DNA from: Mytilus trossulus
Taxonomy: Eukaryota
Assembly: GCF_036588685.1 (NCBI RefSeq)
Contig: NC_086378.1
Location: 43,152,001 to 43,216,000, forward strand
Direction: 5' to 3'
Length of the DNA: 64,000 bases
Part shown: one piece after another, positions 14,169-60,937 of the stretch
How positions within the stretch are numbered: position 1 is the first letter of the stretch
Layout: every line of letters starts with the position of its first letter
Made by a program: the position numbers and the translations under genes
Notes under the pieces: generated by a model
Told to the model about the DNA's origin: nothing
The model's database searches: none
The model's input: the letters and a program-made list of their open reading frames with translations, nothing else

Positions 14169-14947
14169 TTGACTTATTTGTAAGTCTTTGCAAAACATGA
14201 ACTTTCTAATGTTGATATGCTTCAATCATAAGTTCTGTTAAAAATTTTCAAGGGCAATAACTTCCTTTATCTTCCTGGTCGTGATAACTTATATCACTGC
14301 TGAAAATTTTGCAACATAGTGTATATCACAGTGTATGCAAAACAAAAACTAAAAACTAAAAAAAAACTGAACTCCGAGGAAAGTCCCAAATCGAATAGCA
14401 AAATCAAAAGCTCAAACACTTTTAACGAACGGACAACAACTTTCATATTCCTGATTGGTACAGACATTTTTTTATGTAGTAAGTGGTGGACAGTTTGCAT
14501 AAAATTCCATTATATTGACAACGATGTGTGAACATAACAAATAGACGTACTAGGTACAAATTTCAAACGTATGTATACAGCAGCCAACATTGTGTTATAA
14601 CACAAAAAAGTACAGATACACGCCAAATGGATATCACCCAAAACTGACTAAACAGGAAAAGTGATATTCATAAAGACAAATTAAAGAATACTATAACACG
14701 TTAATAAGATGATAAACAGCATCTCTCAAGGACTGATTCTTTTTAAATTCAACAATTCAATTATTGATTTTGGTCAGTTTGACTTATTTGGTGATTTTAA
14801 CGTGCTGAACATGTAGACAGTTTAACATTTTCTTTTTATCTATGTATTATATTTACTTCAACATAACATTGGCACATTGAGTGCCACGATATCTGAGTAG
14901 GAGTTCGAATCCCGGCAAGGGAAGACAGACCTAACATTGTTAGGCTA

Positions 14948-15146
14948 AACAAGTTTAAATTGAAAACAACGTTTTAACATATGATAGCGTTGGATAAAAT
15001 CGCAATTTTTATGTGCATGCAAAACAAATTTCATGGTAGAGGGGTCTAAATACATCACAAACAAAATTTTCCAAAAGACCTAAAAAAGTGAAATGTATAT
15101 TTTAACAAAACGCTTTTGACTAGCAGGTCGAACACCCGATGTTTTT
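14948..15146. repeat. Diverged fragment of the hammerhead-bearing tandem family at 38046-39306
   Basis: aaattgaaaac.acgtt...gcgttggataaaa...ggggtctaaa...ttttccaaaagacc...ggtcgaaca is shared. Confidence 0.75.
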
Positions 15147-15326
15147 GAAAAATCTTAGTAGCACTTGTAAGCCTATTATTTTACGAAGAAAATTATCATC
15201 AAATGACTTCATACAAGAGTTGTAAACTTTGTATAAAAGTGACACCTAACATCCACGTATTCCAACATCAATCCGAATTCCGATAGCAAACAATCTTATT
15301 CGGAAGACTCCGTATACATACTATAA

Positions 15327-21615: not shown

Positions 21616-21990
21616 TCTAGTGCAGAAAAATTGGTACCGTTAATGTTATTACTACCACAGGGTCGATGCCTCTGCTGGTGGACTGTTAGTCCCCGAGGGT
21701 ATCACCAGCCCAGTAGCCAGTACTTCGGTACTGGCATGAAAATACGGATTGTTTGTTGCTGTTACAAATTGTTAGAAATTATTATAAATTAAGGAATGTA
21801 TCTCCTCATGCAAAGCTCTGATTCCTTTTACGGATTTGGCTATACTTTTTGGACCTTTTGGATTATAGCTCTTCATCTTTTATATAAACTTTGGATTTCA
21901 AATATTTTGGCCACGAGCATCACAGAAGAGACTTGTTTTGTCGAAATGCGCATCTGGTGCAGAAAAATTGGTACCGTTAATTTTATTGTA
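21616..21990 (+). mobile_element. Terminally redundant ~337-nt hammerhead-bearing monomer (retrozyme/Penelope LTR-like); core mutated
   Basis: tct(a/g)gtgcagaaaaattggtaccgttaat occurs at 21616 and 21953; hammerhead at 21917-21960 has CAGAAGA instead of CTGAAGA. Confidence 0.7.
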
Positions 21991-23091
21991 TTGCATCAAT
22001 TGTACCAGTTCCGAAGGACTGGCTACTGGGTTACTAGTACTCTCTGGAACTCACTGAGAACCTGTAGTGGTTACGTACACATGAATTCAACGTGAACATC
22101 TGAAGGTTGACATAATATGGCATGTACATTTCAAACATGCAGACACGTCTGCTTAAACAAGAAGCTACAGAAATTTTATTGAAAAAAAAAATGTCATTCA
22201 CACACACACAATCGAGTGCTTCTGAGAAAACAAATCAGTTACGATTTTTGTGAATAAAAGAAAAAAGTAGATCCTTGCTTGACGAATTTCGTACCGTGAT
22301 TCCAATTGTGAAATGAACAGACAATTCGTTTTATCATCACCAGTCATAAGATACTGACATAATCAGTTAGTACTTACAGATCGAAGGAAAATATGTACAA
22401 ACTATGTACAATCATATATGTCATCTAATAGAGGTAATAAGATGAATTATATTGTTAATACGATATTAATACTTTGAAAGATACCTTAAAGAAAAGGCCT
22501 AAAATATATCCCCCTTTACCCTATCTCCCGATTAAACATCTACCCATACTCTTCTTAAATGATCATCTATCCCCTATATTGTTCGATATTTTTTATATCC
22601 GGTAGATCAAACATCGGAATTCTCAGAAAATCTGATAGCTAATTTTAAACAATTTATGATTATATAATATAAAAGTTTATCACAAATTATGTGTATCACA
22701 AATTATGTGCATATGATTTAAATTTCAAGGATATTTCAAATTTTTTAACACAGACACAGAAATGAAAAGTAAGTAGAGATTTAAGAATCATTTAACACAA
22801 TTATGTGTTTGTGTTAACAAAAGAACATAGAACTCTTTAATTGTGAACATTTTGGATAAATTTAACCGAATATATTGAGTGCATTCGATCTTCCTCGTCG
22901 TTTACTAATATTGTTTTCTATCAAATTTGTGTTCGTTTTTTGGTAAAAATGTGAAAATTAATTTAAATGTTTAAATCAAAGTAACACAATGAAATTACAT
23001 GCTATTTGAAAGAAAACAAATTGGCCTTTCCTTTTTCATAAAGGTTTTCGATGAAATTATCAAAATAAGTGTGCCCTGTAAAGAATATCAG

Positions 23092-24511: not shown

Positions 24512-24555
24512 GCGTCACTGATGAGTTTTATGTAGACGAAACGCGCGTCTGGCGT
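24512..24555 (+). ncRNA. Minimal type I hammerhead ribozyme motif (intact core)
   Basis: GCGTCA CTGATGA GTTT tatgt AGAC GAA ACGCGCGT C^TGGCGT; GUC triplet, palindromic stem III. Confidence 0.8.
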
Positions 24556-24604
24556 ATTTAATTATAAGCCTGGTACATTTGATAACTAATTATAAAGCCT
24601 ATGC

Positions 24605-24953
24605 ATTGTTTCAGAAAAAGGGAGAAGGTTTGGGCCCATTAAAACGTTTAATCCCGCTGCAAATGTTTGCACCTGTCCTGAGTCAGGAATCTGATGTACA
24701 GTAGTTGTCGTTTGTTTATGTAATATATACGTGTTTCTCGTTTCTCGTTTGGTTATATAGATTAGACCGTTGGTTTTCCCGTTTGAATGGTTTTACACTA
24801 GTTATTTTGGGGCCCTTTATAGCTTGTTGTTCGGTGTGAGCCAAGGCTCCGTGTTGAAGGCCGTACTTTAACCTATAATGGTTTAATTTTTGAATTGTTG
24901 TTTGGATGGAGAGTTGTCTCATTGGCACTCACACCACATCTTCCTATATCTAT
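24605..24953 (+). mobile_element. Second copy of twister-bearing repeat family B
   Basis: Near identity to 15753-16101. Confidence 0.85.
24611..24694 (+). ncRNA. Twister-like ribozyme motif, type P5 (family B; L4 A->G variant)
   Basis: TCAGA..GGGA GAAGG..T^AA TCCC GC TGCA..TGCA CCTG TCCTGAGT CAGG..TCTGA. Confidence 0.6.
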
Positions 24954-27900
24954 TTACCATATATGTTGCTCCATACGGTTAAAAGATATAATTTATCATA
25001 ACCTAACTAAGATTTTTAGAAACGGTTAAATGAAACATTATACATCTTATTTTATTGAAAAGATATCTCAATAAGTTTCTAAGTTAATTTATTCAAATTA
25101 TGATAAATCTCAATTAGTTGATAACATAGAAAAGTACCGTGACACGTCTTATAGTAATCCTTGCATTTATATATCACCAGCAATCTATTTTTGTTGCAGA
25201 GAAATTGATATAAAATACAATAAAATGTAATAGAAAACAAATATGAAAAACAGTTCATTTTCACAAAAGAGACAGTATATTTAATTGTGAAATTTGACAC
25301 TATTTAAACTAACTAGGCGAGACGACATTCGATAATACATGTTTAATAAATTTTGCTATTATTTTCTTATTTTTGATTTCTTTTACAGTGATATATTTTT
25401 TTCCTTTTTTTTTTCTTTTAAAGTTTTGCGGTAATAGTTTTCTACTTCCTTAATTAGAAAGTTACAAACTAGAATATTATAGTATTCATTACCTATAGCT
25501 TCACAACGAGCAGCAAGAATTATTTAAAATGAGCGTAATAATGTGACATCGTCAAACATACTTTTTGGAGAGTTACTACTAGTATTGATGCCCATTTCAG
25601 ATTAATTTACATTTCACTAAATGATTCCACATTATCTCAATGCATTATGTTATGTGCATCAAGTTAGTTCTAGAACACCAACAGAAAGTTATTGCAGTAT
25701 GCTTATTATTCCAAAAAACTCAAACTGAATACTACTATAAACGCTCTATGTTGGTATCTGGAAGTATTTTATGAATCCAATTTGTCTACAAATTGAAAAT
25801 AATGTATCACAATTGAATCGCTATCAAATATTATATAATATTTTGTCTTATTAGTTTAATTCTAATAACAGTTTAATAGTTTAATATTGAATGAGTATTT
25901 TGTTATTGAGTTTATGCTATATTTGATGTGTTTTTTTTCAGTTTAGGACATCATAACTTTTAAGACTATCCTAAGACACCTATGCATATATCCAAACTTT
26001 AGGACCAAATTTAGAATATGTTTTGTTTTAGGAGACTATCGTTAACCTGACTAAGGACTAAGAGATGTCCGAAGACCATCCTAAGACATGTCCTAGTCCT
26101 AGGATAGCTTCGTTGACACGGCCCAGTCTGGTATCATTCGCATTTTAACTGTAAGTTAAATTGTAAATTGTAAATAGTCCGAGTTCACCATAAAAAAAAA
26201 CTATTTGATATTGTCTGCTTCAAACTCAATAAGATCGTGCAAAAGCGCAAGTCTACTTTTTTCTAAATTATCCAAATTTGAAAAAAACCTCTGAACTGTA
26301 AAGTAATACTGGATAAATGACTTTAGAAGACATTTCTATTCGACATTCAATAGATACGCTATTTCTTCGAAATTTCTGTAACAAACTGTATATTTTTTTT
26401 GTTCCCTTATATTTAATCTAGAATATATAAGATTTTATTTAATAACAGCCGCATCATTGCTTAAGCGGCACACTTGCTTGCATCGTTGTATCCTGCGTGA
26501 ATAATCTTCTTGTTATCGCACCATACAGTTTGATGAATCCTTTTATTTTATTGTGTTGAGATTTTTACTTGTATACTGTTAATGCATGTAGAAAAGTCCT
26601 TTATGAGGAAAGCTAAAGACGTGATGTATAAAAGTTCAATATCCGATGGTAAAAGAGTTACAAGAAACTGATATTTTATTTGATTATAGTCTTTTTCGTA
26701 TTCATGTATTACATAAATGAATGCAGAATATTAAAAAATCAAGGATATGTGATGCATAAATCTTTATTTATTTTTGAATATGAGACTTTTAACATTAATG
26801 TAATAAATCAAAGATAAGATAAAAGTAACGTTTGAATAGAATACGTATGCTCTAACCTCAATTGTACTAGTAGATAAATCAAACTTTCCCCGTCCTTCGC
26901 ATTGACAGTATGACAAAGATTATGTTAGTAAAAATTTATAAAAAGATAAATAATAATGATTTTACATAAAGGCAAAACAATTTAAGAACATACTGACGTG
27001 ACATTATTATGTCTTCTGAGTCGTCCTTTTTCTGTTATAAAACTTTTTGTTTGCGATGAGATGGGCCGGTTAAATGTTGTCTTAAACAGAATGATAGAGT
27101 ACTTTCACGACAGAAACAAAACTTGTATGCATGTATACTGATAAAGCTTTCGTAAGTATATTCAGTGGCCTGGAGAAATAACTTTTTCAGAGCAAACTAG
27201 TGATTATCTGAAAATACACACTCGGTATCATGTAATATCCCACATAATTGACAATCATAACGAAAGGATAATGACAATCACATGTCACGTTCAAATTCAT
27301 AGAAAACCAAATATGCAATCGTTATACTTGGAATTGTGCAACTTAAGAGCAAAATAATACACAAACGCTCTATTTGTTCAACTTCTTAGCAAGAAAAACA
27401 AAGCTCTCATACTCGGCAATTGGACGCTAAACTTTGGGGAAGTTTTGATATCCGATCATTTCGGGTTGGAATTTGAATCATGTGACGAAGTTAGAGTACT
27501 TTTTTTTTTAATTTTGTCATTGATACATTGATTTCGAACGAAGCTAAATTCTAAATTTCCCTTCGTTTGCAAAATCTTTTCTGCTATTTCACATTTTCTT
27601 CCACAGATATATATATAAATATATAAATGATCTACAATGTCATGTCAATTATTGACACATAGACATTGACACACCAAGAGGTGTAGTGATTGAATACTAG
27701 TAACTGTATAGCACATTGACAATTAAAGACTTTTGGACGATGTAACAGGACTAATTCCATTGCATAGTAGATACTTAGCCAGTCGTAAGCAGCAGTTGAG
27801 TAAGAGGAGTACTCATTTTGCTCATTCGCCTTATTTGTAACACAGAGGTCCCGGGTGGTTCGAGTCCCTGAAGAGACCTTTTGATAAGAGGTATAATTTC

Positions 27901-32818: not shown

Positions 32819-32932
32819 ATTCTACGTACTGACGTAGTTTGTCATTTTAATAACGTGTTATACTATTCTTTTATTTGTCTTTATTAATTTAACTTTTACT
32901 GTTTAGTCTGTTTTTATTGATATCTTTTTGGC

Positions 32933-33445
32933 GTGGCTCGGTATTTGTACATCCCGTCAATATGTTATTGTTCTATGGTAATTCTCGTATTCTTGTCTTT
33001 CATTTTTGCCAATGTGCTTTGTCCATATGCCTTTTGGTGTTTCTTTGATGTATCTGACGTGGCTCTGTACTTATACATCCCGTTATTGTGCTATTGTAAA
33101 ACATTTTTGTATTCTTTTCTTTCATTTTTGATAATGTGCTTTGTCTATTTGCCTTTTAATGTTTCTTTGATACATTTAAGATGTGGTACTGCTGTACTTA
33201 TACATTCCGTCATTGTGTTATTGTATTTTAGTACCTTTGTGTAGTCTTCTCTTTAATGTTTGCTAATATGCTTGGTCTATGTGCCATTTTGTCTATATGC
33301 CTTTCTATGTTTTTTTGATACATTTCAGATGTTGTAACTGCTGTACTTATACATTCCGTCATTGTGTTATTGTATTATAGTATATTTGTGTATTCTTGTC
33401 TTTAATGATTGCTTATATGCTTGGTCTATGTGCCATTTTGTGCTT
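32933..33445 (+). repeat. Four diverged ~125-bp tandem repeats downstream of the RT relic
   Basis: gtgg..ctgtacttatacat.ccgtc units at 32933, 33059, 33183, 33331. Confidence 0.75.
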
Positions 33446-37000: not shown

Positions 37001-38404
37001 TATTCAACCTTTGCCAACAAATGCAATAGATGTTGTTAAAACAAGTAAATATTTAATTATAGGGGTAAAATACAACTTCATTATTTTTAAGCAGTAAAAG
37101 AAAGAACAATAAAATACTTGCCAACTTAATATGTGGTGGTAAATATGAAATTTGAAAAAAGGCAAAAATTTTAAAATGAAATGCTTAAAACTTGGCAAAT
37201 TTTGCGTTTCGAATCAAAAACAATCCATCAAACATACTCAAAAATGAAAATAATTAAGTAAAAAACAAATCAATTAATTTTTGAATTTACAAGATTTGTT
37301 CACTTATGTCATGTGTTGATGATTCAATACCGGCAGTGCATGAACTCTAAGTCATTTAAATTCTGTTTTTAAAAGTTGCTTTATCTTTTTTTTGTTAATA
37401 TATTTAGTTTAAACTAGTTTTGAATCAGCTGAAGGATTTATGTTCAATATAAAGTAAACTACCGAACTCCAAAGAAAGTTAAATCGGAAAGTCCCTTATC
37501 AAGTGGCAAAATCAAAAGCTCAAACACAACAAACGAATGGAAACAACTGTCATATTCTTGAATTATGTAGAAATTGTGCAGTAAACATTAGATTTTTACA
37601 TATAAGTTGCATAATTCCTTGCTGAATTTGACAATAATTTTTGAAAAATTAGTATAACTACACACATATGTTTTTTAAAAGTGATCCAGAAGACAATTTT
37701 AATATACAGAGAATTGCTCAGAACGTATGAGTCGTGGTATACTATTATCATATTATACTGGAGTGAAATGTCCCACTCAATTCTGCATTTGTATTACTAG
37801 TAGTTGCCTTACTAAACGTGGGATATGAGCCAAAATCTCTTCTAAAGGAAATCAAAGCTAATCAAAGTACTGAAAGACTAGAGATCGGATGACCCCATGT
37901 TCTGGTCAATGGTCACAAACACTTGTCTCAGAACAAAGAAAAATCCTATCTCTATACCTGAAAGTTAGGTTCCGATATATCAAATCTACTCTAACATCGC
38001 TAGGTTGATTTTCCAGGCACTTTATATATATATATATATATGTATACGAGTCTAAATTGAAAACTACGTTCAAACCTATGATTGCGTTGGATAAAAACCG
38101 CAATTTTTATACGTGTGCATGTAAAACAAATTTCGTTGTAGAAGGGTCTAAAAACAGCACAAACAAAATTTTCCAAAAGACCAAAAAAGTGAAAAAGTAT
38201 ACTTAAACAAAACGCATTTGACTAACAGGTCGAACAACTGATGTTCTTTAACCCTGCTGACTGCCATTGGCGATTGCCAAATAAAATTGATCACAAGATG
38301 TAACAAAATGGATCTTAATATAAATTTAATACTAAACAGAATTTTTTTTTAACTTGTGGCCACGATGTTATGCCACAAACATACGGTGTCAATATTTTTT
38401 TAGT

Positions 38405-38448
38405 ACACCAGATCCGGATTTCGACAATAAATGTCTCTTCAGTGTTGT
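38405..38448 (-). ncRNA. Minimal type I hammerhead ribozyme motif
   Basis: ACAACA CTGAAGA GACA tttat TGTC GAA ATCCGGAT C^TGGTGT. Confidence 0.75.
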
Positions 38449-38976
38449 TAGGGATCGAAACGGTATTTGGAAGGCCATATAAAAAGTACCCTCATTTTTA
38501 GAAAAAGTAACCTCATTTTTTTTAGATAGACTCTTGAATTTTGATAGTCAATATAGGATGAACGGATCATACAAACCGGAGGGAAAATATGATACAAGCC
38601 CAAACGAAAAAATATAAACGAGTCTAAATTGAAAACTACGTTCAAACCTATGATTGCGTTGGATAAAACCCGCAATTTTTATACATATGCATGTAAAACA
38701 AATTTCATTGTAGAAGGGTCTAAAAACAGCACAAACAAAATTTTCCAAAAGACCAAAAAAGTGAAAAAGTATATTTAAACAAAACGCATTTGACTAACAG
38801 GTCGAACAACTGATGTTCTCTAACCCTGCTGACTGCCATTGGCGATTGCCAAATAAAATTGATCACAATATGTAACAAAATGGATCTTAATATAAATTTA
38901 ATACTAAACAGAATTTTTTTTTAACTTGTGGCCACGATGTTATGCCACAAACATACGGTGTCAATATTTTTTTAGT

Positions 38977-39020
38977 ACCCCAGATCCGGATTTCGACAAT
39001 AAATGTCTCTTCAGTGATGT
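38977..39020 (-). ncRNA. Minimal type I hammerhead ribozyme motif
   Basis: ACATCA CTGAAGA GACA tttat TGTC GAA ATCCGGAT C^TGGGGT. Confidence 0.75.
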
Positions 39021-39399
39021 TAGGGATCGAAACGGTATTTGGAAGGCCATATAAAAAGTACCCTCATTTTTAGATAGACTCTTGAATTTTAAGAGTCAAT
39101 ATAGGATGAACGGATCATACAAACCGGAGGGAAAATATGATACAAGCCCAAACGAAAAAATATAAACGAGTCTAAATTGAAAACTACGTTCAAACCTATG
39201 ATTGCGTTGGATAAAAACCGCTATTTTTATACGTATGCATGTAAAAATGTAAAACAAATTTCGTTGTAGAAGGGTCTAAATACAGCACAAACAACATTTT
39301 CCAAAAGTATATATATATATTTCTCTGATTCAAGTTCCTGAGTGGATGATGAATAAATGACAGGGAAGTCAATCTCACCGTAATAATTATCATATTGTT

Positions 39400-39770
39400 T
39401 AAGAATTGAATGCTTCTTTTTGTAACTTCATCGGGGTGTAAAAGCGTTGACCGAAGTACATTTTGTATGAAGCGCGGAAGCGCTTCATTCTAAAAATGTG
39501 CCCACGGTCAACGTTTTTACAACCCTATGAAATTACAAAAAGAAGCATTCAATACTTATAATTACATTTTTTTAGCAAGGATCATGAAAACATGATTTTT
39601 TTCATTTTTTTTATTTAATTCACCTGTACACTTTATTGTGGGACCTCGTGTTATCATGAATGAAAGTTTTATTGAGTAATGCAATTGCTTAAGGAATAAC
39701 ACGTGATGTGTAGTTAGCCAATCAGAATAACGTATTATAGTGAAACATACATGTAATGTAATTATAGTCA
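39400..39770. mobile_element. Non-autonomous element with ~160-bp hairpin (39400-39558) plus CCAATCAG arm
   Basis: Arms ttgaatgcttcttt...gcgttgaccg...gaagcgc GGAA gcgcttc...cggtcaacg...aagaagcattcaa. Confidence 0.65.
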
Positions 39771-40688: not shown

Positions 40689-43590
40689 CTTCTTCTTAGC
40701 GTTCGCCTTTACACTTGAATACCAGTCTCCTCAACCAATTTGGTGGTCTTCTGTAGGGCATCCACTGGTCCGTATAGCTTCTCTTCGAGTGGTGTTTCTG
40801 AGCGCCATATCTTATCTCTCCTGATGGATCTTGCATGACTGTAAGAGGTGTGCCGTATCCTGCTCTGCTTCTCCAATAGGACACATTGGAGATGGAACAA
40901 CTTTCATGACTTTGTGTAGATGTTAGTTGAGTCTGTTATGTCCTGTCTTCAGTCTAAATATGGTGATTTGTTCAGATCTTGTTACCTGATGCTAACTGTC
41001 TTGTTGCTGTGGAGTATTGAACAGAGATTTGATGTAAGCCTTCATCTCTAAGAAGCAGACTGGATTTTCTTCCTGGTGTTGTTCAACACCATACTTTGCT
41101 TATTTATCGGCTTGTTCATTACCCCAAACTCCACAGTGTGAAGGGATCCTCTGAATTACTGTTGTCAGACTTTTGATGTTGTATAAAGCTTGTTGGAGTT
41201 GAGGTTGCTGTACGTTCTTCAAAACTTGTAGCACAGAGAAGGCATCAGTCAGAAGTACTACTTGAATTGTGTTATCGATTTTGATTTTGATTGAGTGTGC
41301 ATCATGAGTTAGGGCTTCTTCTTCTCCAGCTTTGTAGTTCGAACAATGTAGGCCTGTTGGTATTGCCTCTGATTGTTGATCTCCATTGGGGTACTTAATG
41401 TATATACCAGCCCTTCCTTTTGTTGTGGGATTTGTGGCTGACCAATCTGTATATACTCTTACCCAGGTTGCTAAAGGATACTCTTCTTCAAGCATACTCA
41501 TTGTTGTGGTTTTCTTAATATTGCTAGTCTCATCATCTTTGGTGGTAATGAGCGGAACTGATGTCTGGATGGTGACATTTCCAAGGTTATCTTCACACGG
41601 GTTGTTATTCATTGTGAAAGCTATGGGTTCGATATATTTAGGTAGAGCTTACTGGTGTTTTCTTTGTAATGCTCTTATCTCTAATGTAAAGCTGGATCTT
41701 TTGAGTCTGCCAGATGAGAGTTATTTCAGTCTGGTATTTATTGTGTGGTCTTGTGAACATTGATATTTAGTGGCTTGTATCATGGCTTTGCACTCCCTTC
41801 TCTTACCTAATGGTGGTATGTTTGTTATATCCTCCATACTTTTTATTGGTGTTGATTTTAAAGCACCTGTGGTTATACGTAGTGCCTGAATCTGAACTTT
41901 GTCTGAAGTATAACGGTGAGACTTGGATGCAGTCATGAGCTAGATCCATATTCAAGGTGGGGTCGTGCATTTTCTTGGTAGACAGTTTTCAAGATTTTTT
42001 TCATTTGCACCCAATTTTGTTCCTGCACGTTTCCTCATGATGTTCTGTTTTCTCCTAGCCTTAGCTTCAGCTGATGTTATATGTTGCTTCTATGTCATTC
42101 TTTTCTCGAAAGGTACCCCAATGTATGTTTGTTGGTCTTACATTTTAAGTGGAGTATCGTCCAAAATCAATTTGACAGATTTGGTTTTTGGAGAGTGTGA
42201 AGAGTGTTCCGGTTGTTTTTTTCTCTGTTGATGGTAACACACCACTGCTAAGTCAAAGTGACTATCATATCTAAAGCTGTTTGAATTCTGTATTTAGCTG
42301 TAAACGCATACTCTATTGAGCACCAAAGAACAAAATCGTCTGCATAAAGTTCTGGTTGTATCCCTTTTGGAAGCTCTGGTACTAGGTTATTCATAAAGAG
42401 TATGAATAGAGTTGGTGATAATACTCTTGCTTGTTTTAAGAGTACTTTCTGTCCACATTACCCATCTACCAGCACTCTGGCTCATCTATTGTATAAGTAA
42501 GATTTGGTTCATTTGTACATTTTTCCACTTATGTCATATCTTACATTTTTGCAAGATGTTAATCTTTTCATACCTTATCAAATACTCTTTGGAGATCTAC
42601 AAAGACAGCCAATGCTCCTTTTTTTTATTGGAAGGCATCTTCTACTACCTGCGATAGATGTGTAGTCTGGTCTTCTGTGCTTTTGTATTGTCTAAAACCA
42701 GTTTATTCATGTTCAATGATGTTCTCTGACTCTAAGTACATGTACATGCACTTGTTTATTATGTGCTCCAACAATTTACACCACCTGTTGTTAGGCTTAT
42801 AGGGCGATAACTTGAGGCTTTTTATTTGTTCTTTCCTTTTTTAAGTATTTGCATCATTATTGCTTCCTTCCAGCACTGTGGGACTTGACCTTGTCTCCAG
42901 CTAAGATAAAATATGTCCAGCAAAGTATTTAGTGATGAGTTCCCTAGGTGTTGTAACATCTCATTTGTTATGTTATCTGGACCTGGTGACTTTCTTCTTT
43001 GGCTTTCTTATAGATTGTTTCCTCTCAGAAATTGTGATGTCAGTCTGCATGATCTCATGTTTTCTGTCTTTTCCTAATTTCTGTTCTTATCACTTTTTTT
43101 ACGTAAGGTTTGGATGCTGGTATTGTCGCGCTTACTATGACTGGGTCGAATATCTTGACCACATTGTTGATGTTCTTTCCTTCAGTAACTATGTCCTTTG
43201 TAAGTTCATTTGGTCTTGTTTCAAATTTTCCCCAGTTTGCCTACTTGTAATTCCATCTTGGTAATTTAGCAATAATAGTTGTTTTTTTCCTCTGATGGAT
43301 AGTATAATTGGGCGATGGTCACTCCCCCTAGCTGGTCACTTACTTTTCTATTGATATTCTGGTGTATATCGTCAGTACAAAAAGCTAGGTCTGGTGTAGT
43401 TGTTGTGTGTCAGCGGCGAAATAAGAAGGTTGGTGTATCAGTTGGATCATTGACAAGAATAAGATGGTGTTCATCTTGCCAATTTTCCCTGGTTTCTTCT
43501 CTTTTATCTATTGTGTTGTATCCCCAGCTATGAGATTAGCTGTTAATATCTCCTGCCATGAGAAAGTTACTGTCTGATATCTGTATGGAG
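40689..43590 (-). mobile_element. Degraded non-LTR retrotransposon (APE-RT-RNase H-zinc knuckle; I/Nimb/Ingi-type)
   Basis: RNase H remnant YTD.S...SNYKA.EEAL...LTDAFSVLQ...IPSHCGVWGNEQADK (41100..41612); APE remnants AGDIN and GGSDHRPI near 43300-43560; RT remnants (IQALRITTGALKSTPI); (GAA)n tail. Confidence 0.85.
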
Positions 43591-48490: not shown

Positions 48491-49168
48491 TGGTCACAAC
48501 TAAATGTGGTAGTGCACACACATGTGTTTTTGTGGTCACAACTAAATGTGACTGTCGTATAGTAGTGCACACACATGTGTTTCTGTGGTCACAACTAAAT
48601 GTGACTGTCGTATAGTAGTGCACACACATGTGTTTCTGTGGTCACAACTAAATGTGACTGTCGTATAGTAGTGCACATACATGTGTTTCTGTGGTCACAA
48701 CTAAATGGGACTGTCGTATAGTAGTGCACACACATGTGTTTCTGTGGTCACAACTAAATGTGACTGTCGTATAGTAGTGCACACACATGTGTTTCTCTGG
48801 TCACAACTAAATGTGACTGTCGTATAGTAGTGCACACACATGTGTTTCTGTGGTCACAACTAAATGTGACTGTCGTATAGTAGTGCACATACATGTGTTT
48901 CTGTGGTCACAACTAAATGGGACTGTCGTATAGTAGTGCACACACATGTGTTTCTGTGGTCACAACTAAATGTGACTGTCGTATAGTAGTGCACACACAT
49001 GTGTATCTGTGGTCACAACTAAGTGTGACTGTCGTATAGTAGTGCACACACATGTGTTTCTCTGGTCACAACTAAATGTGACTGTCGTATAGTAGTGCAC
49101 ACACATGTGTTTCTGTGGTCACAACTAAATGTGACTGTCGTATAGTAGTGCACACACATGTGTTTCTG
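48491..49168. repeat. 53-bp minisatellite, 12 full units plus one deleted unit
   Basis: Unit tggtcacaactaaatgtgactgtcgtatagtagtgcacacacatgtgtttctg, starting at 48533 with period 53. Confidence 0.97.
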
Positions 49169-49257
49169 TCTGTGTTTAAAAAAAAACAACTATTTTATTC
49201 AAATCTGAATCCGTTAGTTCAACACGTTGTTTTACTGATTGGGACTGATCTTTGAAC

Positions 49258-50151: not shown

Positions 50152-53100
50152 CTTTGAACACATTCATTTGACCTTGGAGGCTACCATGTTCTACGTGCGA
50201 ATGGTCAGTGTGATTTTACGCTGTTTAGTTTTAAATGACCTTTTGAATACAAACGACACAAAAGATTATCCCTTTTAAGAAAACTCAAGTAAGCAAACGA
50301 GTTAATGCTTATACGATTTGCCTTCTTCACACACGACAAAAAAAATGATCAAATTAAAGTAAAAAAGATAAATTACAGCTGTGTCATCAAGTACATCATC
50401 CGAAAAAAATGGGAAAAAAACCAGGATTAACTTTTTTAAAATGTTTTTTTGTTTCTATCTTCGATAAAGTTACGAGCTGCAAAGGAAGTGATGCCTTTTA
50501 ACTGGTCATTTGAACTTAAACTGAAATAGAAACTCCAAAATCCAAATTCACAGAAAGAATCATGTTGGTTAAAATCTCCTTTTCAAATACGTAGTTAGTC
50601 AAATTAGTTTTTGTTTCCAAAGAAAAGGTGGTATTACGGTTTAATCACTATATTCAATAGCCTAACTCGTTATTAAAAAGTTATTTATATTTTGAAATAT
50701 TGCATGCTCATATTAATAGTTATCAAAGGTACCAGGATTAACATTGTAATGTAATATACCGGAATTCGGAGTGGATTTCATAAGTCTGGTTTACTTTGAG
50801 TCGTAAAAATCACATTCGTTAGAGGGGCGTAATTGATATCATTGTAAAATTTAAACTTTATTTGTATTAAGATTTACAAAAGATTTAAGAAATCAGCCAA
50901 GTTCACTGAAATTTCGTATCTTTATTTTTGATATAGTACTTTTTATACTCAAACTACATCAGTAATAACCAAATGAGACAGTAACACCAATTTTCCAGTT
51001 TTTACTTGTTGCGTAGTTCATTCTATCATATTATTATGTCGTATTTATTTCACTTTGTCATTCAAGGTTTTTTTAATTATAAACTTGTTCAACTTTCCTA
51101 TTTCAAATGCATTAGGTTTATTTTTCATTTTGCGCTTGGTAAACTCCTGTATATTAAAACATTTACCAGGTATTTTTAGATTATGGTGTTACATAAATTA
51201 TGCACTTTTTTTCCAACATAATACCATATCGCCTACACTCTTGGTCGTTGTTATCCTTCTATCTACAAAAAGGAAATTTATACGCAAAGAAAAAAAAATA
51301 ATTAGTTATTGATGATCATAAGTATTACATTTTATTTCTCATACATATCTAAATTACAACTTGTAATCCTTGGTAAATGGTTTAAAATTAGATTCAAAAC
51401 ACATTTAAAATTGCATGAAAGTTTTTGATCAAATGTCTTAAATATTTAGCTGCACTTTTTCATGCGGAAACCCACTGATTTATTAGGTTTTCTCAGCAGG
51501 ATTTTCATAACTAGATGCATGCATATCACGTAGAGAATAAATACAAGATGATTGAATGAAATTGACAACCACTTGAATTATGAAAAAAGTAACCCAACAC
51601 TTCAAAGAAAAGTATCAAAATATCATTTTAACCCCCTCTTAAATTTGAAACCACTTCTACAAGGCCTTTTATATTTGATTTTCAAAACATTTAATTTAAT
51701 TTTCAACAACAAAATGTTTGCAGAAAATGTGTCATTTCAGAGGTAATTATATGTGTGCTTTTAACATGTATCAACTGAAAAGATTCACACAATTTCAGTT
51801 ATTCAGATATTCAGTAAAAAGAATTTGCTGCAAGCGCCCCAGTCTGTTTTCTGCTACAATTTTTCAATTAACATAGAGTGTTTGTCGGTGTACGAAAAAA
51901 ACCAATTGTTATGTATTAAACGAATATACACTAAAGAATACAGAAATACCCAATATGAAAGTAAGAAGATGTAGTATGATTGCCAAAATGAGACAACTCT
52001 CCACCAGATACCAAGTGCCGTAGAAGCTCAAGTTTTATGTCTTATTTTGAAATTATCCGAAGACATGTGCTTGTCCATTTTTCATTGCAGGCAACTTAAT
52101 TATCATAAACGGTACCAATTTTAATGCACCAGATGGGCTTTACAACAATTAATGTCTCTTAAGTGATGCTCGAGGCAAAACAAATTAAATATTCAAAATT
52201 TAATACAAATGTATAAAAGAGAGGATCAAACCAAAAAAGGACATAAATTATAGCCAAATCCATGAGGAAGATATGTTCCTAAATTTAAAATACTCTAAAA
52301 AAAAATTATCACGGCAAATTTAGATAAAAAAAATATCTGTATTTTCACCTTGTGTCACATGTATATCGTGGTTATTTTTAGTTACACCATAATTGCCACC
52401 TATTTTAGACATTGCCACCTATTTCAGACAGCGGTAACATTTTGATATACAAGAACCGAATGCCGAAATGCAAGATTAGAGTTCTTTTTTGGTCATATAG
52501 TTCTTTAACTGTTATGGTTCTTTCACATTTTTGGCCATCAAATGTTCTGCTTTGAGCAAACCCGTTAAAGATGAATCAAGAAAAGCGTTTCTGAAGCATT
52601 GAAATTATAAAGTGTTGTTTTGATTTTTTAAACGATTTTTTCTAAATGATAGGCTATGTTTATATGTAAGGTAAACCCATTGTATGATTTTCATATTTGT
52701 AATAAAAGGCTTTTGTGTCCACAATCATAGCATACTTGGTTTCATATTTCAGATGAAGTCACGAATAGCTAATTCATGCTTCATTGTGTGAAATAAACTA
52801 GACTGATAACACAAAGAAGGTGTTAAAGGCCGTATACGTTCATTGACCTGTAGATGAGAACAGCTGTACTTAAAAAATGTCAGACTGCCAATATTTTTCA
52901 CTTTTGGTGGAGATTTTTCAATCACAACCAGGGATAGATATGTACACTCTTGGAGGAGACATTTTCTGCTACTTAGAGCTATAGATTTCTCAGATTATGA
53001 ACGGCCGATACCATAGACTCAAATGGCCGTTTCTTAAACATTGAATCATTATCTATACGAAACATTTGAATATAGGAATAAACAAATTCTCAAAAGTTCT

Positions 53101-54194
53101 TGAGAATATTTCATAAAATCAGGTGCACAATTATAAATATGCAATCTTCCTGTGAAGTTTCGGGGACCTGTGGGAAGAGTTAATTAACCAAAAATTGTAC
53201 CCTGTTTCATAAATGTTGCGAAAATGACTTAGTTTTTAAGTTTGTTATAATAATAAAAATTCCTGAAGCAATTCTGTAATACAAGTTGCACATGTTTTGA
53301 TATGTGCAATATTCCTGTGAAGTTTCAAGGATCTAGGATACAAAAAGTAAGAGTTGAAGAAAAAAACTGGTACCCATTTTATCCACAAGTCCTGTTGTCC
53401 GCCTACCCAACATTTCCACGGTTTTGTCTAATACCAGGATTTTCTAATTAACAATGTAACATAAATTTTTTTTTTTTTTTCTAGCACTAAGAAATCAACG
53501 ACAATCATCCCATTGTATTTTATTATTAATACACCATATCTTCTTAATTAGCAAACTTGCGCATCTGTTTTTTTGGGGCTATACTGCCACTTCTAAAACT
53601 CATTTTTTGACACTATAATAATAATTATTACAAAATCAAAATGCAAAAAAAAGAGGCTCACATCGGCCATAGATTTCAAGACTTCTCAAATAATGTGAGT
53701 TGTGTGTTTTATGAAACATAAGTTTAATATTATGTTATCTTGTAGAGGTGAATTCTGTTTTGTTGCTTAATGCTTTCATTTTGTTTAAATAGTGCCACGG
53801 TATTGATTTTTCTCGTTGTTGAAGGTCATAGGTTTATAATTGCTTACATCGACTTCATTTGAACTGTGGTGGATAGTTGTCTGCAATCATACTACATCTC
53901 CTTGATTATGTTTATAATACGTAACAAACAAAAGTGGCGTATCTTTAATGCCAACTTACATGCAGTGTGTAACGGTACATCAGATGACGTTTCATTTTCA
54001 GATGTAACTACTTCCAATAATAAAAGTGTCTTATAATTCACACACAAAAAAATCAAACAAACAGGAAACCGTGAACTTTTAAAAAATATCCTTTAAATTC
54101 AAACTGAAAATTACAATTTCCTTTTCAGGACGATTTAATATTTTAATGTGTTGGTAGCCAAACCAAAAGACTTGACAATCAAAAAGACTAGACA

Positions 54195-55147
54195 ATGGCA
54201 AAATTTCAATTATACACCATTGTTGCGCCTTGCTTTATTATCCTAGTGTGTTTAAGTGGAATGGAAGCTGGAGGAAAGTTTACTTGGCTTCAGAGGGATA
54301 GATTTGATGAAGTTGTAGGAAAATACATCAATGCTATAAAGGGACACAACTGTGCACCAAGATCGAAAGCTGATATGATGATGAGGGATGATATTGTTAC
54401 ACAAATTCCGAAGGCAAACGAGCTTCTCAGTAAAGTTTTCTATTCAAATAGATCTGTGCTAGTACATATGCATAATATGGCTCTTAATAGGGCATTCTTC
54501 ATGAGTTATATATTACAACGAATGAATAGTACCGAAGACTACTCTATACAACCTAATCTTCATTATCTCTATATGTCAGTAACGGCAGATATCAATGCTA
54601 ATCCATATGCCATAAACGGATCATCCATCATTTTTGACCAAGATGTCTATTATCCGAATTGGTTGACAAATTTGGATTTTAATAAAACTATTCCATTGTT
54701 CGGTGTAAAAGGCTGGCGGAAAGACAATACTTTTGCACAAGGAAACTTTATTCGAGAACCTAACAGACGAGTTGTTCAATGCCAAGATATAGGAGCAGGA
54801 AACAATAAAAATTATACCCATGACGGATATAAGATGAACCCTTGGTATGACTTTTGGTTACCGGATCTAGATGGACAGGAAGACAAATCTAATAAATTTA
54901 CATATAGCGTAGGAATTCGATATTCAAACGTAACGGGAAAATTCATCAAAGAAGATTTTGATGTTTTCAATTTTTTTGGTCCAAATCTACCTAGTCAGAG
55001 CGAAAAAGACATTGGGAAAATGCCAGTCAGATTTACAGTACCATATTTTGATTGTGGAAAATCTGACACATGGAAAGTAAGCGCCGTAGCTCCAATCGTT
55101 GATTTCTTTCCAAGATATTCAAATTATACACACATGAGACGACAGAG
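54195..55147 (+). CDS. Exon 1 (signal peptide + Cache-like module 1)
   Basis: ORF 54195..55151; AG|gtaagt donor. Confidence 0.92.
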
Positions 55148-58100
55148 GTAAGTACACGTCATCCATCAAAATACTCAGCGTTTAAAAATACCATTTAAAC
55201 TTCAATATCTATTATAACTGAAAGTGCGTACGGGTTTTATATGTGTTGGTTTATTGTTCTTCTGCTAAATTTTGATTGACACATGATGGAGCACAGCTCA
55301 ATTTCTTACTTCATGCATGATAAGATTCTAAAGTTAGAAATGTCAATTTTTAAACATACTGTAGATGGTATTTTTAAACGCATCTTAGCAAAGGTCAAAT
55401 TCATTTTGTTTGTAGTTAAGGTTATCAATATTTGAATATCATAATGATTTCTGATTAACATTCACAATATACATGTTGTCCAATGATTAAAAGAAGAAAG
55501 GTAGGAATCGTTTTGATTTTGTACCACCGATATAAGCGCTAGTAAGACCTCCCTTAAAAAAAAAAATTTTGACTGAGCTGTGTTTATTCAAGATTCAATT
55601 AAACATTTAGAGTTAATTTCTCATATTTATATCAAGGGCTCATGAATATTTTTCTTTCACTGAATATTACAATTGACACAATTACTTTATCCGTTCTAAG
55701 AAAGTATTTGCTTTTTTTAGGTTTGTTGGAGTGATAACGATGGATACGGATTTTTTGAAAATTGACTTTAACCCATGTGGAGTCAGCGCTGGAAATCCGG
55801 GACCAAGCTACCTTGCAGGAGTAGCAAGGTGTAAAGATCACACTGGAGTAAGTTATTTCTTAATTGGGACAGATAGAAAAAGTTTATGTAATACAAAACA
55901 CAAAAGTGTCGCTGACCATGTCATGACTTAGAACCATAACGACCCTTTTTTAAACGTTATTCGATTTTCGTTTCATTGTTAATGTCTTTGTAGTTGTTGA
56001 TATGAATAAATGCTTGAAACGTATTGAGAATAGTCAAGAAAAATATGGTGTTAGATGCGTATGTAATGTAGCCAATAAATTGATTTCAAATCAGAACTTA
56101 TTATTGATCTTAACACATGTTTCATATCTACGAAATTCGACATGGATAGAACTGAGGATGGAACAAATAAATACTAACGATTGTAGCCGTTGTTTAGAAC
56201 CACACCAAATGCACATGTACAAACGAAAGACATTTCTGGACCATTTGTCACATAAGTAAAACAAACCATAAAAGCATGCACTGTAACAGTAATAATACAT
56301 GATTTTATTCTCACATGGAGATTCCTGTTTATAATGATGGACTATACCGATCTTTTATTGTTTAATATTTACTTATTTCTTCTAAAATTTTTTTAGTGCA
56401 AAGCTAAAAGCGGTAAAGGATATGGGCGTGGAGGATACATCTGTCACTGTAAGGGTAAATACGTATATCCTATGGATATCCAAGGACCATACGATGGAAA
56501 ACTGATAGAAATGTCAACCAATGAGGAACGGGCAAACAGTTTTAATTGCATACGTGGCGACCGTAAGTTTAAAATTGTGTTTTATTGGAAATGCGTTAAT
56601 TGAACACTTAGATTTTATCATGTTCTATCAAGATTCTTTATTTCTCAAACACCATAAAGTTACAATGGTACAAAGAAGTTCATCAAAAGTTATATAACAT
56701 AACACAAACACACATGACAAGATGAGATGAAAATATGAAATAAAATAAAAGAAACAGTCTAGTAGCGAAGAGTGGTGATTAACCAAGAAGACTCACTTGA
56801 AAAGTTATAACCCTGATAAATTTGCACAGCTTTTTCACTTATTTTTAATTTTTAACTGTAATAGTTTTTCAAATTTTAGTATGTTACATCTGTGCAAGAA
56901 AAAAGAATCCAAATATTGTGCTCGAAAATTTGCCAAAGAACTACACTGCAAAGTATAATGAAATTCATCACCAATCTCGTTACAATGACATAAGTTACAA
57001 TATCTAAGGTTTCGCTCAATCTTATTCCATTTACCAGTTTCGATGGGTAACTTATGCTTACCCGTTCGAAATCTACAATATGTTATTCTATCTTTATCGC
57101 TTAAAATATTCAGATATTCCTCAAATTCAAAACTTTGTTTATACAATTTGTAGGCCAAACCTTTTGATGAACAGTCAATATCAGCCCTCCATTTCTGTTG
57201 AAACTGATCAAATAACTTTTGTTTTAAACTAATACACAACCACTTAGAATTAAAATTTCCTTGTGACCACCATATATTGCTATATCCACATTTATCTAAG
57301 GTATTTTTAAAACGTATTTCAACCAATCTGACCTAAATTGGTTGTCAGAGTTCTTCAAGAACATGTATTTGTATTATATTTTAGCAATTCTATCAGAACG
57401 GATTGCTCTGTGTTTTTAGTTCAAATGAGCATACGCGCTTCAGTAGAAATAAAGTCAAATTTATAATTAAAAAAGCAGCCATTCCAGTCACAGTACGAAA
57501 ACGATAGATGTTAACCCCCAAATGAATACACGACGCTATACTCCCTGTACGTGAATTATTTTCCTATTTAATATATTCAATTCACATAAATACATTTATA
57601 CTATATTTTTACGGTATGTCTTTGTCAAAACAATGAATTCCAAAATTAACAGAACTACAATTAATAATATAGTGTGTTTTACACTCGAGCCAATGAATTT
57701 TATGCTTTATTTTTTTTATTTTTTCATAGATTACCGCGTTCTTCCCATTGTTGACCAAAATGCTGACGTCACAGTTGAATTTGGAGTGGCTAATATCAAT
57801 ACTCGTAAGAAGAGGTCACTTCTGTCAATAAATGAAACGGATTTCATACACTATGGAAGTGAAAAACATGGAAAAGTTGAAAGAGAAACTGTAAAGGAAA
57901 CTACCAAGGTTGAGTTTGAACAGAATCAGAGGAAAAAGGAGAAGAAAAAGAGAAGAAAGAGAACCACGGATTACGGAGATAGATCAGAATTTGATCAAAT
58001 GCGCTTTGATAGAATGATCAGGATTTTCAGACAGAAAGTCAGTATAAACAAAGACAATTGCAAGAGTGTCCCTGCAAGTTCTCTCAATCTGCCAGGAGAC

Positions 58101-60937
58101 GCTGCTTTTGACGTTGAAAATCAATTTAAATACCAAGGAGCAACGGCCCTGAGACTATCGCATTTTCTATCAATTTTCCTAGAAACTGTTCAGATAACTG
58201 ATAACTTTGGTAATCTAAGAGGAGGTGGTAGACTTCATCAGGATCACTTATTTGGAGAAGTCTTAGCTAACGTAATGGGAGATCACAGAATTTTATCAAG
58301 TGGCATTTTCTTCGAACCATACATCTTTGAAAACCAGGATGGAACTCCTAAAGAACTTTTTGGTCCTTATGCCTTTAAAGACCGAGGCGTTGCTAAGGCT
58401 ATAGATATGGCAGGTTTACCAAGAAAATATATATTTGAAGACTGGTACCAGAATATCAAACAGAGCTGGGAAACTAATACAGCTAAACTCAAGAAACATA
58501 AAATGAATCAACTGGTTCGCTCAGACGCAAAAGGGACCAGCTCAATAAAATTTGAATATTACCCAATAGGATACTATGCTCCTAAATATGAAGATGGTCT
58601 TTGGTCTCATCCTAAGTTTAAGTGCGATGGAATGACAGATAAGTGGGTGATGACATACAGTATTCCTTTCTTCAGAAGAGACTATGTTGCAAAGAAAAAC
58701 AAATTCGCGTAAGTATAAAATACAATGGCATTGGTTTTTTTGCCAAGTTCTAGATAATGTTAGTTTCAAATGAACGACGAAATGTATGAAAAAACATATC
58801 TAAACAATTTGATATCATAATTTTTTACCACGATCAACAATTTATTTAAATAACATGTATATAACCATTTTATTTTAAATAGCTTGTACTTTTTTTGCAA
58901 TTTCATAAGTGCATATTTTTAAAAGTTCTCAAATAGTTATGAACACAGAAATAATTATATGTCTTCCTTAATTTTTTTTAGAGGAGTTGTAACTGTCGAT
59001 GTACCTCTTGATAATTTGGAAATAAACCAATGTCCAATGGCATTTAGTGTTGCTAATGCATTCAAAAATACAGCAAGATGTCATAAGTCTACTAAGGTAA
59101 GTTGTTAATCATCTACACACTCTAAGGTCCCGAGCATTACTGATAATCGATTGATTGATTGTTGGTTGCTTGACGTCCAGTGGGGCATCACTGATGAAGA
59201 TAATTCACGAAGCAAGACATAATTAGAAATATCACTATTTGCAAAGTAAATGGGAAATAGACAAGAAGTTTCATATACAGATTAGTAATACACATTCATT
59301 GATCGATCGGTAGATATACAGAGACACTGTCAGGATCAAAGCGTTATCATTACTTAGGTACCAAGTTTTCATCTTTTGTGGTGGTATAATTTTTCAGACT
59401 TTGAAATTTAGAAAATATTTCGATATCACAAGTGAAATAACATACAGGGATATGATATCTTAAAAAAAAATCCACATAGATGATACAATTTTGTATGCTT
59501 TTTACTCTAATTTTTCATTTGGAGCAAAACGTTTGAATTCCCTTCTGAAACAAATCATTTTGACAATGAGAATTTAATAATTCATATTTAAAAAAAAAAA
59601 CATGCCCATTGATTTGAAATACTCATGTTATTGAAGGACACAAAATCACCATCTTTCATATCATTCTCTACTCTTTTGTGTAACGTTTCAGCGGATGTCA
59701 CTATCGTTATTTTTAAGACTTTTAGTATCTTTTGTAACTATATGTCCCTTTAGTTCTACATTTGATTTGTGATTTCCACTTTGGTAATACAAATTGTATC
59801 TTTTCCATTCCGTATCTAACTCATTTCATCTCCTTCGTTTTGTATACGATATACAAAAATCTCCTCAAGTAGCACCACTTTTTATCTTCCTTTGAAGTAT
59901 CTTCATTAATATTTACTTTATTTCCAGTGTAAAATGATTCCTGGGTATAAATACTCACGAGGAGCATACCGATGTGATTGTAAACAAGGATACGAGTACC
60001 AGTTTGCTGATGGAAAGAACTTTATAGAAGGAAGTTTAGTCGAGCTGGAATATGAAAAGAAAGTCAAGGGACTGTTCAGTCGGTAAGTCATTTTAAAATA
60101 AATTGATAAATGAATTAAAGCATAGTCTTTTTATACAGTCTTGTCCTTATTATTTTTTTCATTTTTTTTTTCATTTGTAAAAGCTTGTTCAATGACTTTG
60201 TTAGATTTTCTTTGTCGGAATAGTAGTAACATTTGTTTACTTAAGTAGGCATCTATGTTCAATGTTGGTATTATTTGTTCTCGCGTCTTGTATTAAATAT
60301 TCAGTTAAGTTTGCATTAAGAAGAGTATTAAACAAAACTAAACTGTTGTTGAACTATATATGATGCATATCAAATGAATATGACATTTCTATTAAAGGTT
60401 TATGAATGGAAAAATACATTTCATACATTTTTATCCCTTTGTTTGATGTGTTTGAGCTTTTGAATTTGCAATTGCTGAGGGACTTTCGGTTTTTAATTTC
60501 ATCGGAGTTCTGAATTTCAGTGATTTTACTTTTAATTAGACTGAACAATTTCGATTTATTTGCTAGCAGTGGTCTTAGCTTGCAAAATGATCAATTTGAA
60601 ATAGACGCACTACCATCAGACACCAAAAACGATGTGACATGCCTTTGATGAAAAGCATTATTTCAAAAATTAACAATAAAATTAGTTGAAGAGAGGCGAA
60701 TGATCAGCTAAAAAAAAGGGGGGGATTGAACAATGCCATGGCAAAAACGAAAAACGATCAATAGACAAAAAACAGTGCATAGAAAACTTTTCATAAAAAA
60801 ACAAGTTCTAAACTTCTCTTACTCTTTGTAGGTTTGATTCCCTAGTATGTCGAGTACAAGGAGGCGCCAGTGCAGTTGCTGTGAATTACTTTTCAGTATT
60901 AATAGGGATGCTTGTGGCATTAATGATGTCAAGATAA
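54195..60937 (+). CDS. 866-aa secreted, probably GPI-anchored protein with two tandem GPR158/GPR179-like extracellular (Cache + EGF-like) modules
   Basis: Exons 54195-55147, 55721-55847, 56397-56562, 57730-58708, 58982-59096, 59928-60082, 60832-60937 (2601 nt, phases all consistent, GT-AG). N-terminal signal peptide; repeated motifs ALxxAxF(M/L)S, WY, PYFDC/PKFKC..W, idxNxC, ARC..T.C....G....G.Y.C.C..GY; hydrophobic C-terminal tail. A 5' UTR acceptor at 54128 implies upstream non-coding exon(s). Confidence 0.88.
55721..55847 (+). CDS. Exon 2 (FVGVITMDTDFLKIDFNPC...ARCKDHTG)
   Basis: ctttttttag acceptor, GGA|gtaagt donor, phase 2/0. Confidence 0.9.
56397..56562 (+). CDS. Exon 3 (EGF-like 1: CKAKSGKGYGRGGYICHC...FNC)
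   Basis: ttttag acceptor, C|gtaagt donor, phase 0/1. Confidence 0.9.
56625..57330 (-). mobile_element. 5'-truncated LINE 3' end (zinc-finger C-terminus, RTE-X/L2-like) in intron 3
   Basis: ORF 56835..57326 FRTGKHKLPIETGKW...CNLC...IGDEFH...C; AATAAA and tail near 56640. Confidence 0.8.
57730..58708 (+). CDS. Exon 4 (polybasic linker + Cache-like module 2)
   Basis: ttttcatag acceptor inside ORF 57633..58712; GC|gtaagt donor, phase 1/2. Confidence 0.92.
58982..59096 (+). CDS. Exon 5 (GVVTVDVPLDNLEINQC...ARCHKSTK)
   Basis: ttttttag acceptor, AAG|gtaagt donor, phase 2/0. Confidence 0.9.
59928..60082 (+). CDS. Exon 6 (EGF-like 2: CKMIPGYKYSRGAYRCDCKQGY...)
   Basis: tttccag acceptor, CG|gtaagt donor, phase 0/2. 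Confidence 0.9.
60832..60937 (+). CDS. Exon 7 (FDSLVCRVQGGASAVAVNYFSVLIGMLVALMMSR*; GPI-signal-like)
   Basis: ctctttgtag acceptor, phase 2, supplies the closing Cys of EGF-like 2, TAA at 60935-60937. Confidence 0.85.

Follow-up and report, generated by a model that had tools for sequence, protein, structure and literature searches.

A dispersed, transcribed family of ~570-base hammerhead repeats in Mytilus trossulus, likely a non-LTR retrozyme

Introduction

Retrozymes are an element kind already known and validated in Mytilus. In Mytilus galloprovincialis, retrozyme circles have been validated and the non-LTR retrozymes measure ~350-390 bp; that description gives a monomer of 150-450 bp, a size that is typical rather than defining (Cervera and de la Pena 2020, PMC7229834). 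Penelope-like elements have been put forward as the autonomous elements that mobilize animal retrozymes, on the grounds of co-occurrence and, for Xenopus, of sequence relatedness. Penelope-derived animal retrozymes, as presented in the accessible part of a recent survey, range from 51 to 972 bp and come from 31 vertebrates, 3 insects, and 1 coral, with no mollusc named there; of 9 predicted retrozyme dimers from Xenopus, 8 showed no cleavage (Li, Clavereau, Pollet 2026, 10.64898/2026.07.22.740005). Other sources describe the combination of a fixed 3' end with 5' truncation as a Penelope-like signature, the fixed 3' end marking the site where reverse transcription starts (PMC11167929), and report (TA)n targets in Hydra and Naiad together with a proposed microsatellite target bias in the Neptune clade (Craig et al. 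2021, PMC8557442). In the Hydra clade, (TA)n targeting goes together with a hammerhead situated ~90-430 nt from the 3' end (PMC8557442 supplement).

Here, we describe a tandem array in a 64,000-nucleotide stretch of Mytilus trossulus DNA (hereafter, the window). Like the mussel retrozymes of 2020 (PMC7229834), the array comes from Mytilus and is built of tandem units that are non-coding, low in GC, and equipped with a single type I hammerhead, but the unit of its family, at 548-573 bp, lies above the 150-450 bp range. Thus, the comparison with published mussel families proposed in the preliminary description holds for the ribozyme type and the tandem low-GC plan, but not for the length, which exceeds 350-390 nt. 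With two consecutive units that carry complete hammerheads, the array qualifies as an animal non-LTR retrozyme in the working sense of the 2026 survey, and its size is inside the range given there (10.64898/2026.07.22.740005). No parent Penelope-like element was found for this family. The Hydra-clade elements share with it the (TA)n targets, a canonical hammerhead in the non-coding 3' part, and a single end site but the Hydra ribozymes listed in PMC8557442 have a helix III of 3-4 bp, compared with 2 bp here, and the array lacks an open reading frame (ORF) for reverse transcriptase (RT) and GIY-YIG endonuclease.

The array is a copy of a dispersed, non-coding, ~570-base Mytilus family whose full units each contain a type I hammerhead, and we consider it likely that this family is a non-LTR retrozyme, with RNA predicted to cleave itself, circles that a host ligase would close, and probable re-insertion by a Penelope-like element. 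With this family, mussel retrozymes reach about 570 nt, and one expressed subfamily is identified.

Results and discussion

Array organization

Self-alignment resolves the insertion, at 93% identity, into 2.25 head-to-tail units of 572 + 548 + 141 bp, with unit starts at 38046, 38618, and 39166 and periods of 572 and 548.

38046..39306, minus strand: whole insertion (by self-alignment), with its 3' end in the ribozyme sense at 38046 and its truncated 5' end at 39306
38046..38617, minus strand: unit 1, 572 bp; a stretch of 21-24 bp is duplicated internally at 38481-38520
38618..39165, minus strand: unit 2, 548 bp, with 11 substitutions relative to unit 1 over 548 aligned sites
39166..39306, minus strand: partial unit 3, 141 bp, without a ribozyme and with an 8-bp insertion

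The self-alignment and the lack of any ORF of at least 100 aa within 38046-39306 confirm the head-to-tail, non-coding array of the preliminary description, and the full units, at 572 and 548 bp, agree with its monomer of ~550-570 nt. The array was missed by TRF because of the period limit of that program (500). The array's own frames of 58-99 aa gave no Pfam match, and no GIY-YIG domain was found in 173 scanned frames out of the 180 of at least 58 aa in the window. The GC content of the monomer, 33-34%, is under the 45-50% ceiling of animal non-LTR retrozymes.

Unit 3 has the common family letters at two sites, 38153 and 38167, at which units 1 and 2 agree on another letter; at site 38115, units 2 and 3 are alike. 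A single circular template accounts poorly for this pattern, and clean rolling copying of one circle explains it less well than local duplication, conversion, or a linear template that was mixed. The letters common to units 1 and 2 and missing in unit 3 also speak for an alternative that we regard as unlikely but worth weighing throughout, namely, that an autonomous Penelope-like element with (TA)n targets has this unit as its 3' UTR or pseudo-LTR, that the array is a locally duplicated, 5'-truncated insertion of that element, and that the RNA is precursor or read-through without a stable circle. The 2026 survey, in which the Xenopus retrozymes derive from pseudo-LTRs (10.64898/2026.07.22.740005), points the same way. 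However, no ORF is found among or next to the units, and the nearest RT and RNase H pieces lie 2-3 kb away, resemble a decayed LINE, and are unlinked to the array. Furthermore, a search with the 81-aa frame of the unit against longer proteins, which was a weak one, gave a single match among 9 candidates and no Pfam domain.

Hammerhead ribozymes and predicted cuts

A hammerhead scan of the 64-kb window returned 4 matches, compared with a mean of 0.08 in 100 shuffles. Complete type I hammerheads are present in both full units of the array (2/2), and their predicted cuts are 572 nt apart.

38977..39020, minus strand: upstream type I hammerhead, core from 39014 to C17 at 38983, predicted cut 38983/38982, 3'-strand stem I mismatch at 38979
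38405..38448, minus strand: downstream type I hammerhead, core from 38442 to C17 at 38411, predicted cut 38411/38410, 5'-strand stem I mismatch at 38445
38411..38982, minus strand: predicted cut-to-cut monomer, 572 nt, GC 33%

The scan therefore recovered, as predictions, the minus-strand hammerhead per full unit, both cuts, and the 572-nt spacing that had been read from the sequence before. The ribozymes had also been called minimal, a label that has to be replaced: with a helix I of 6 bp, a helix II of 4 bp, and a helix III of 2 bp plus a palindromic tetraloop, they are canonical type I hammerheads under the definition in PMC4209133, where the minimal form lacks helix III and has an enlarged helix II. 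The minimal hammerheads of Penelope pseudo-LTRs (Cervera and de la Pena 2014, PMC4209133) share the type I topology and the dimer-permitting palindromic centre but differ from the array ribozymes, whose helices are canonical (6, 4, 2 bp) and which have no extra base before stem II. That the ribozyme is not of the minimal type counts against an origin of the unit as part of an autonomous Penelope-like element.

The palindromic centre of the array ribozyme could support a dimer, with a computed duplex of -12.3 kcal/mol. Dimeric hammerheads have a strand-swap geometry. Comparison of 7 distinct hammerheads from three families showed 96% of cells paired and two-sided changes in 5 of 12 pairs, a level reached in 0 of 500 shuffles; the 7 are related, so that this covariation is support and not a probability. 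In neither array copy is the hammerhead fold the minimum-energy fold, and the Rfam scan gave no hammerhead at the gathering threshold and, with E up to 10, only 1 chance miRNA match.

Circular folding against 40 shuffles yielded z values of +0.27 for the array monomer, -1.04 for the tandem metagenome contig L001 described below, and -1.72 for a 350-nt sister family. The array monomer is thus no more self-paired than its shuffles, unlike the typical, highly self-paired retrozyme circle.

A viroid-like replicon was considered and rejected: the ribozyme is on one strand only, there is no rod fold, and the variant reads described below are one-directional.

Dispersed copies and related families

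Additional members of the family were found inside and outside the window. The diverged fragment that the preliminary description had placed at 14948-15146 was recovered with slightly wider boundaries, and the family is indeed dispersed.

14946..15149, minus strand: older, 5'-truncated copy, 85-87% identical to the array, without a ribozyme and with the same 3' point as the array

The 26-nt core pattern of the ribozyme occurs at 3 metagenome loci (L001, L002, and L003). The contig L001 belongs to the same family as the array: it is a pure, ORF-less tandem with a period of 573 that is 90-94% identical to the array and also contains the 38481-38520 duplication of unit 1. Its stem I is intact, and A replaces C at the cleavage position in both of its ribozymes (205-215 and 778-788). 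The two L001 copies are 99.7% alike, so the contig may be a collapsed assembly. Its purely tandem structure is not what would be expected if the units were appendages of a coding Penelope-like element. In the DNA run X7, 27,452 contigs align to one unit (a figure that is not a copy number), and the head-to-tail unit joint is present among the X7 contigs. Together with the strand-biased RNA reads reported below, the independent 573-bp tandem and the DNA contigs bear out the earlier characterization of a dispersed, retrozyme-like, non-coding family.

The full 35-nt ribozyme pattern had no match in viral or metagenome contigs, and the 26-nt core pattern had none in prokaryote genomes or viral contigs. 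Scans with 17-mers and 20-mers gave 22 viral loci and 1 bacterial locus; their alignments extended over at most 26 bases, and we discarded the 23 loci as fortuitous. Words of the unit were absent from the full texts searched, although the PMC7229834 supplement or GenBank MN642551-76 may already contain the ribozyme; the lengths "550" and "570" do not occur in the accessible part of the 2019 preprint (10.1101/721605). The unit words were also missing from the available Naiad, Chlamys, and Hydra consensus files of PMC8557442, Mytilus Naiads included.

The contigs L002 and L003 represent a sister family, with a period of 350 in L003 and a ribozyme that differs from that of the array at few positions; outside the ribozyme, the likeness between the two families is only weak (z 2.4). 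Judged by size only, the sister family is probably the published mussel retrozyme. Its pieces in the window are as follows.

18074-18117, minus strand: sister-family piece; ribozyme at 18111 intact, stem I perfect
21616-21987, plus strand: sister-family piece
52101-52347, minus strand: sister-family piece
12731-12848: sister-family piece

The copy at 21616, L002, and L003 all start near one cut site and stop ~35 nt beyond the next. Two sister insertions share a flank of ~140 bp (17906-18046 and 21988-22128) and are inverted, 3.5 kb apart, as in a duplication that included the insertion site; 17906-18261 is 96% identical to 22128-21773. In L003, positions 1-735 and 2000-3606 look protein-coding and are unrelated to the repeat, the contig being possibly a chimeric metagenome assembly. 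A third hammerhead family is represented by a single copy at 24512-24555 (plus strand), with compensatory changes in all three helices; it lies directly upstream of a repeat at 24600-24956 that is 96% identical to 15747-16105.

Transcription of the family

Reads of 4 of 24 runs were aligned to 37950-38617 at 85% likeness; the alignment skipped 37950-38053 and hence the unit junction. In X22, 2332 of 8,710,588 RNA records match, and in X24, 1271 of 7,335,232; the sister family contributes about 454 records to each total. Excluding sister reads, family RNA amounts to ~216 per million in X22 and ~111 per million in X24. The RNA runs X15-X18 (fish gut and mollusc metagenomes) contain 0.23-0.34 of the words and were left out of the read analysis.

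The variant comparison used 24 of the 40 listed rows; rows from a poly-T indel tract and from the sister family were set aside, as were five further rows. At 15 variant sites from 38123 to 38606, one letter accounts for 58-88% of the X22 forward reads (134-332 forward versus 1-8 reverse), whereas the same letters make up 0.1-15% of the X7 DNA depth and 1-30% of the X24 forward reads. Of these 15 letters, 14 are present in L001, which is gapped at the remaining site. Thus, one homogeneous, L001-type subfamily yields abundant, one-directional RNA in X22, at ~117 per million. Under the usual stranded-library convention, the direction of this RNA is likely that of the ribozyme strand. The DNA and RNA come from different samples, so the rarity of the subfamily in DNA may be an individual difference. 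As for minus-strand transcripts, whose absence the preliminary description had named as an objection, family RNA was found and the X22 subfamily is one-directional, its assignment to the ribozyme strand following from the library convention and applying at the level of the family.

The non-variant reads are diverse and 1-7 fold strand-biased, X24 being nearly symmetric, and they behave as expected from read-through. This is the pattern that would be seen if the family were a satellite-like repeat with an irrelevant ribozyme, its RNA arising passively by read-through of the many copies that lie in introns and UTRs; the damage to both array ribozymes and the lack of a fold signal in the monomer agree with such a fossil. 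We nevertheless hold this explanation to be improbable, because a homogeneous subfamily that is rare in DNA dominates X22 in one direction over the whole unit, stem I is intact in nearly all reads, and compensatory changes are seen across the hammerhead families. Nor do the RNA ends suggest that the units are the tail of a longer coding element: the X22 loose ends listed run on into unit or sister-family sequence, not into foreign sequence.

A circle and a tandem precursor look alike in short reads and contigs. The forward depth of the family in X22 continues past the predicted cut, with 393 at 38398 and 517 at 38445, and this continuity implies that much of the RNA is ligated or uncut. After subtraction of sister reads, the X22 forward depth steps from 387 at 38414 to 594 at 38417; a comparable step is absent from the X22 reverse reads (39 to 41) and from the X24 forward reads (95 to 99). 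The step hints at some 3' ends at the cut, other causes being possible, and the read ends listed do not pile up there. An intron inside the unit, suggested by a splice-like word, was considered; no RNA skip joint appears among the 15 rows listed.

The most far-reaching interpretation would make the L001 type a circular RNA of 573 nt that, in some mussels, multiplies at the RNA level, given that it makes up 0.1-1% of the DNA depth at the best markers, that one run owes most of its family RNA to it, and that no other copy of the family was found in the metagenome collection; the fixed 3' end and (TA)n targets would then identify a Hydra- or Neptune-type Penelope-like enzyme as the one that retrotransposes it. 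We consider this combination a long shot.

Stem I mismatches

Each array hammerhead has one stem I mismatch. The 5' half at 39014 pairs fully with the 3' half at 38442, with one U-G pair, and the reciprocal combination, that of the circle, has two mismatches. The pairing arithmetic of the preliminary description, with a different single mismatch in each copy, a clean cross-pair, and two mismatches in the circle, was therefore correct. Its further proposal was that these complementary mismatches form a lock, an adaptation that permits cutting only in the dimer and shields the circle from re-cleavage. Apart from the arithmetic, the proposal can draw on the clustering of changes: stem I, with its 12 positions, holds 2 of the 11 differences between units 1 and 2 (post hoc P about 0.02), a clustering that may also be due to chance or to lost cleavage at the array locus.

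The related copies tell against it. The intact letter at 38445 is found in 514 of 517 forward RNA reads in X22 and 92 of 92 in X24, and in 98.4% of the DNA depth, so the 38445 mismatch is private to the array copy. The 3' stem I change (38979, which is site 38407 in unit 1 numbering) is present only in unit 2 among units 1 and 2 and both L001 copies; judged by this comparison, it too appears to be private. Moreover, tandem copies of one template could not inherit two different mismatches. Finally, the upstream cut (38983) in the dimeric fold relies on the doubly mismatched core and is impaired in both folds; because monomer release needs both cuts, release of the 572-nt monomer is predicted to be harder, not easier, at the array locus. 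With stem I intact in 514 of 517 reads, the lock is largely refuted, and we give it almost no credence. Since both array ribozymes have stem I mismatches that are missing in related copies, the array is likely an ageing copy and not the main source of the RNA.

Insertion ends and the putative helper

(TA)n tracts adjoin the insertion on both sides.

38023..38040, no strand: (TA)n tract at the 3' junction, putative target site
39308..39319, no strand: (TA)n tract at the 5' junction, putative other half of the target site

These two are among the window's five (TA)n runs of at least 10 nt. The statement that the array begins next to a (TA)n tract was right about the adjacent tract, but the opposite side is flanked by one as well, and 38046, read in the ribozyme sense, is a 3' end lying 365 nt past the cut, not a start. 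As both flanks are (TA)n, a target-site duplication longer than 4 bp is not distinguishable there. The same ribozyme-sense 3' end is common to all three non-tandem copies (3/3), namely, the array, the fragment at 14946-15149, and the unrelated contig behind the spurious protein P0025, where the shared end is located to within a codon or two. Among the loose ends in the RNA runs, the three flank-like ones listed (38087, 38201, and 38597) all open with TA alternation, compared with a background of 0.8%. The 14946-15149 fragment has no TA tract.

The family thus has two Penelope-like traits, a fixed 3' end with 5' truncation and a (TA)n target. The first is the described Penelope-like signature (PMC11167929), and TA targets with a hammerhead ~90-430 nt from the 3' end are known in Hydra-clade elements (PMC8557442). 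Both traits also count for the alternative in which the unit is the end of an autonomous element. However, no ORF combining RT and GIY-YIG lies between or beside the array units, and L001 is tandem throughout. The lack of an RT/GIY-YIG ORF at the array counts against the possibility raised earlier that the units are LTRs of a coding Penelope element, and the fixed 3' end, the 5' truncation, and the (TA)n target are its Penelope-like features: the array fails as an autonomous Penelope-like element, yet works like cargo of one. From the shared 3' end, the (TA)n flanks, and the Hydra-clade precedent, we infer that the helper would be a TA-targeting Penelope-like element of the Hydra or Neptune type, itself not found. 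These insertion signatures, a single 3' end and TA targets, narrow the helper to TA-targeting clades.

Under the favored interpretation of the family as a non-LTR retrozyme, its cycle might run as follows. The family is transcribed, the L001-type subfamily almost wholly in one direction, and each unit is predicted to undergo one cut by its hammerhead, acting either singly or in a dimer joined by the palindromic helix III. By analogy with published mussel retrozymes, an RtcB-type host ligase would close the monomer. A Penelope-like RT with a (TA)n-preferring GIY-YIG endonuclease (Hydra or Neptune type) may then nick a TA tract, and cDNA synthesis would begin at a constant position, 365 nt 3' of the cut, and proceed for a variable length.

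Window surroundings

The DNA of the window is AT-rich and of animal type. Its exon at 57555-58709 shares 96% identity with a protein of Mytilus galloprovincialis, which places the host among the Mytilus mussels, and is part of a gene at 57555-59105 (plus strand) with Cache-like and GPR158/179 extracellular domains. A bacterial promoter scan, irrelevant to animal DNA, found 3 promoters compared with 2.2 expected. A broken non-LTR retrotransposon, which we take to be a decayed LINE, occupies 41103-43240 (minus strand), with RT (42251-42457) and RNase H (41103-41648) in separate frames and a strong AT skew. Four palindromic elements of 130-270 bp, presumably MITE-like, have arm identities of 82-88% (3880-4012, 4906-5178, 16102-16305, and 39400-39558), and one of them is 90 bp from the array. 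A tandem array at 48509-49169 has a 53-bp unit in 12.5 copies with 97% matches, and a diverged tandem of 122-149 bp units at 32929-33445 has a related inverted piece at 14608-14717. An unannotated ORF of 319 aa is present at 54192-55151.
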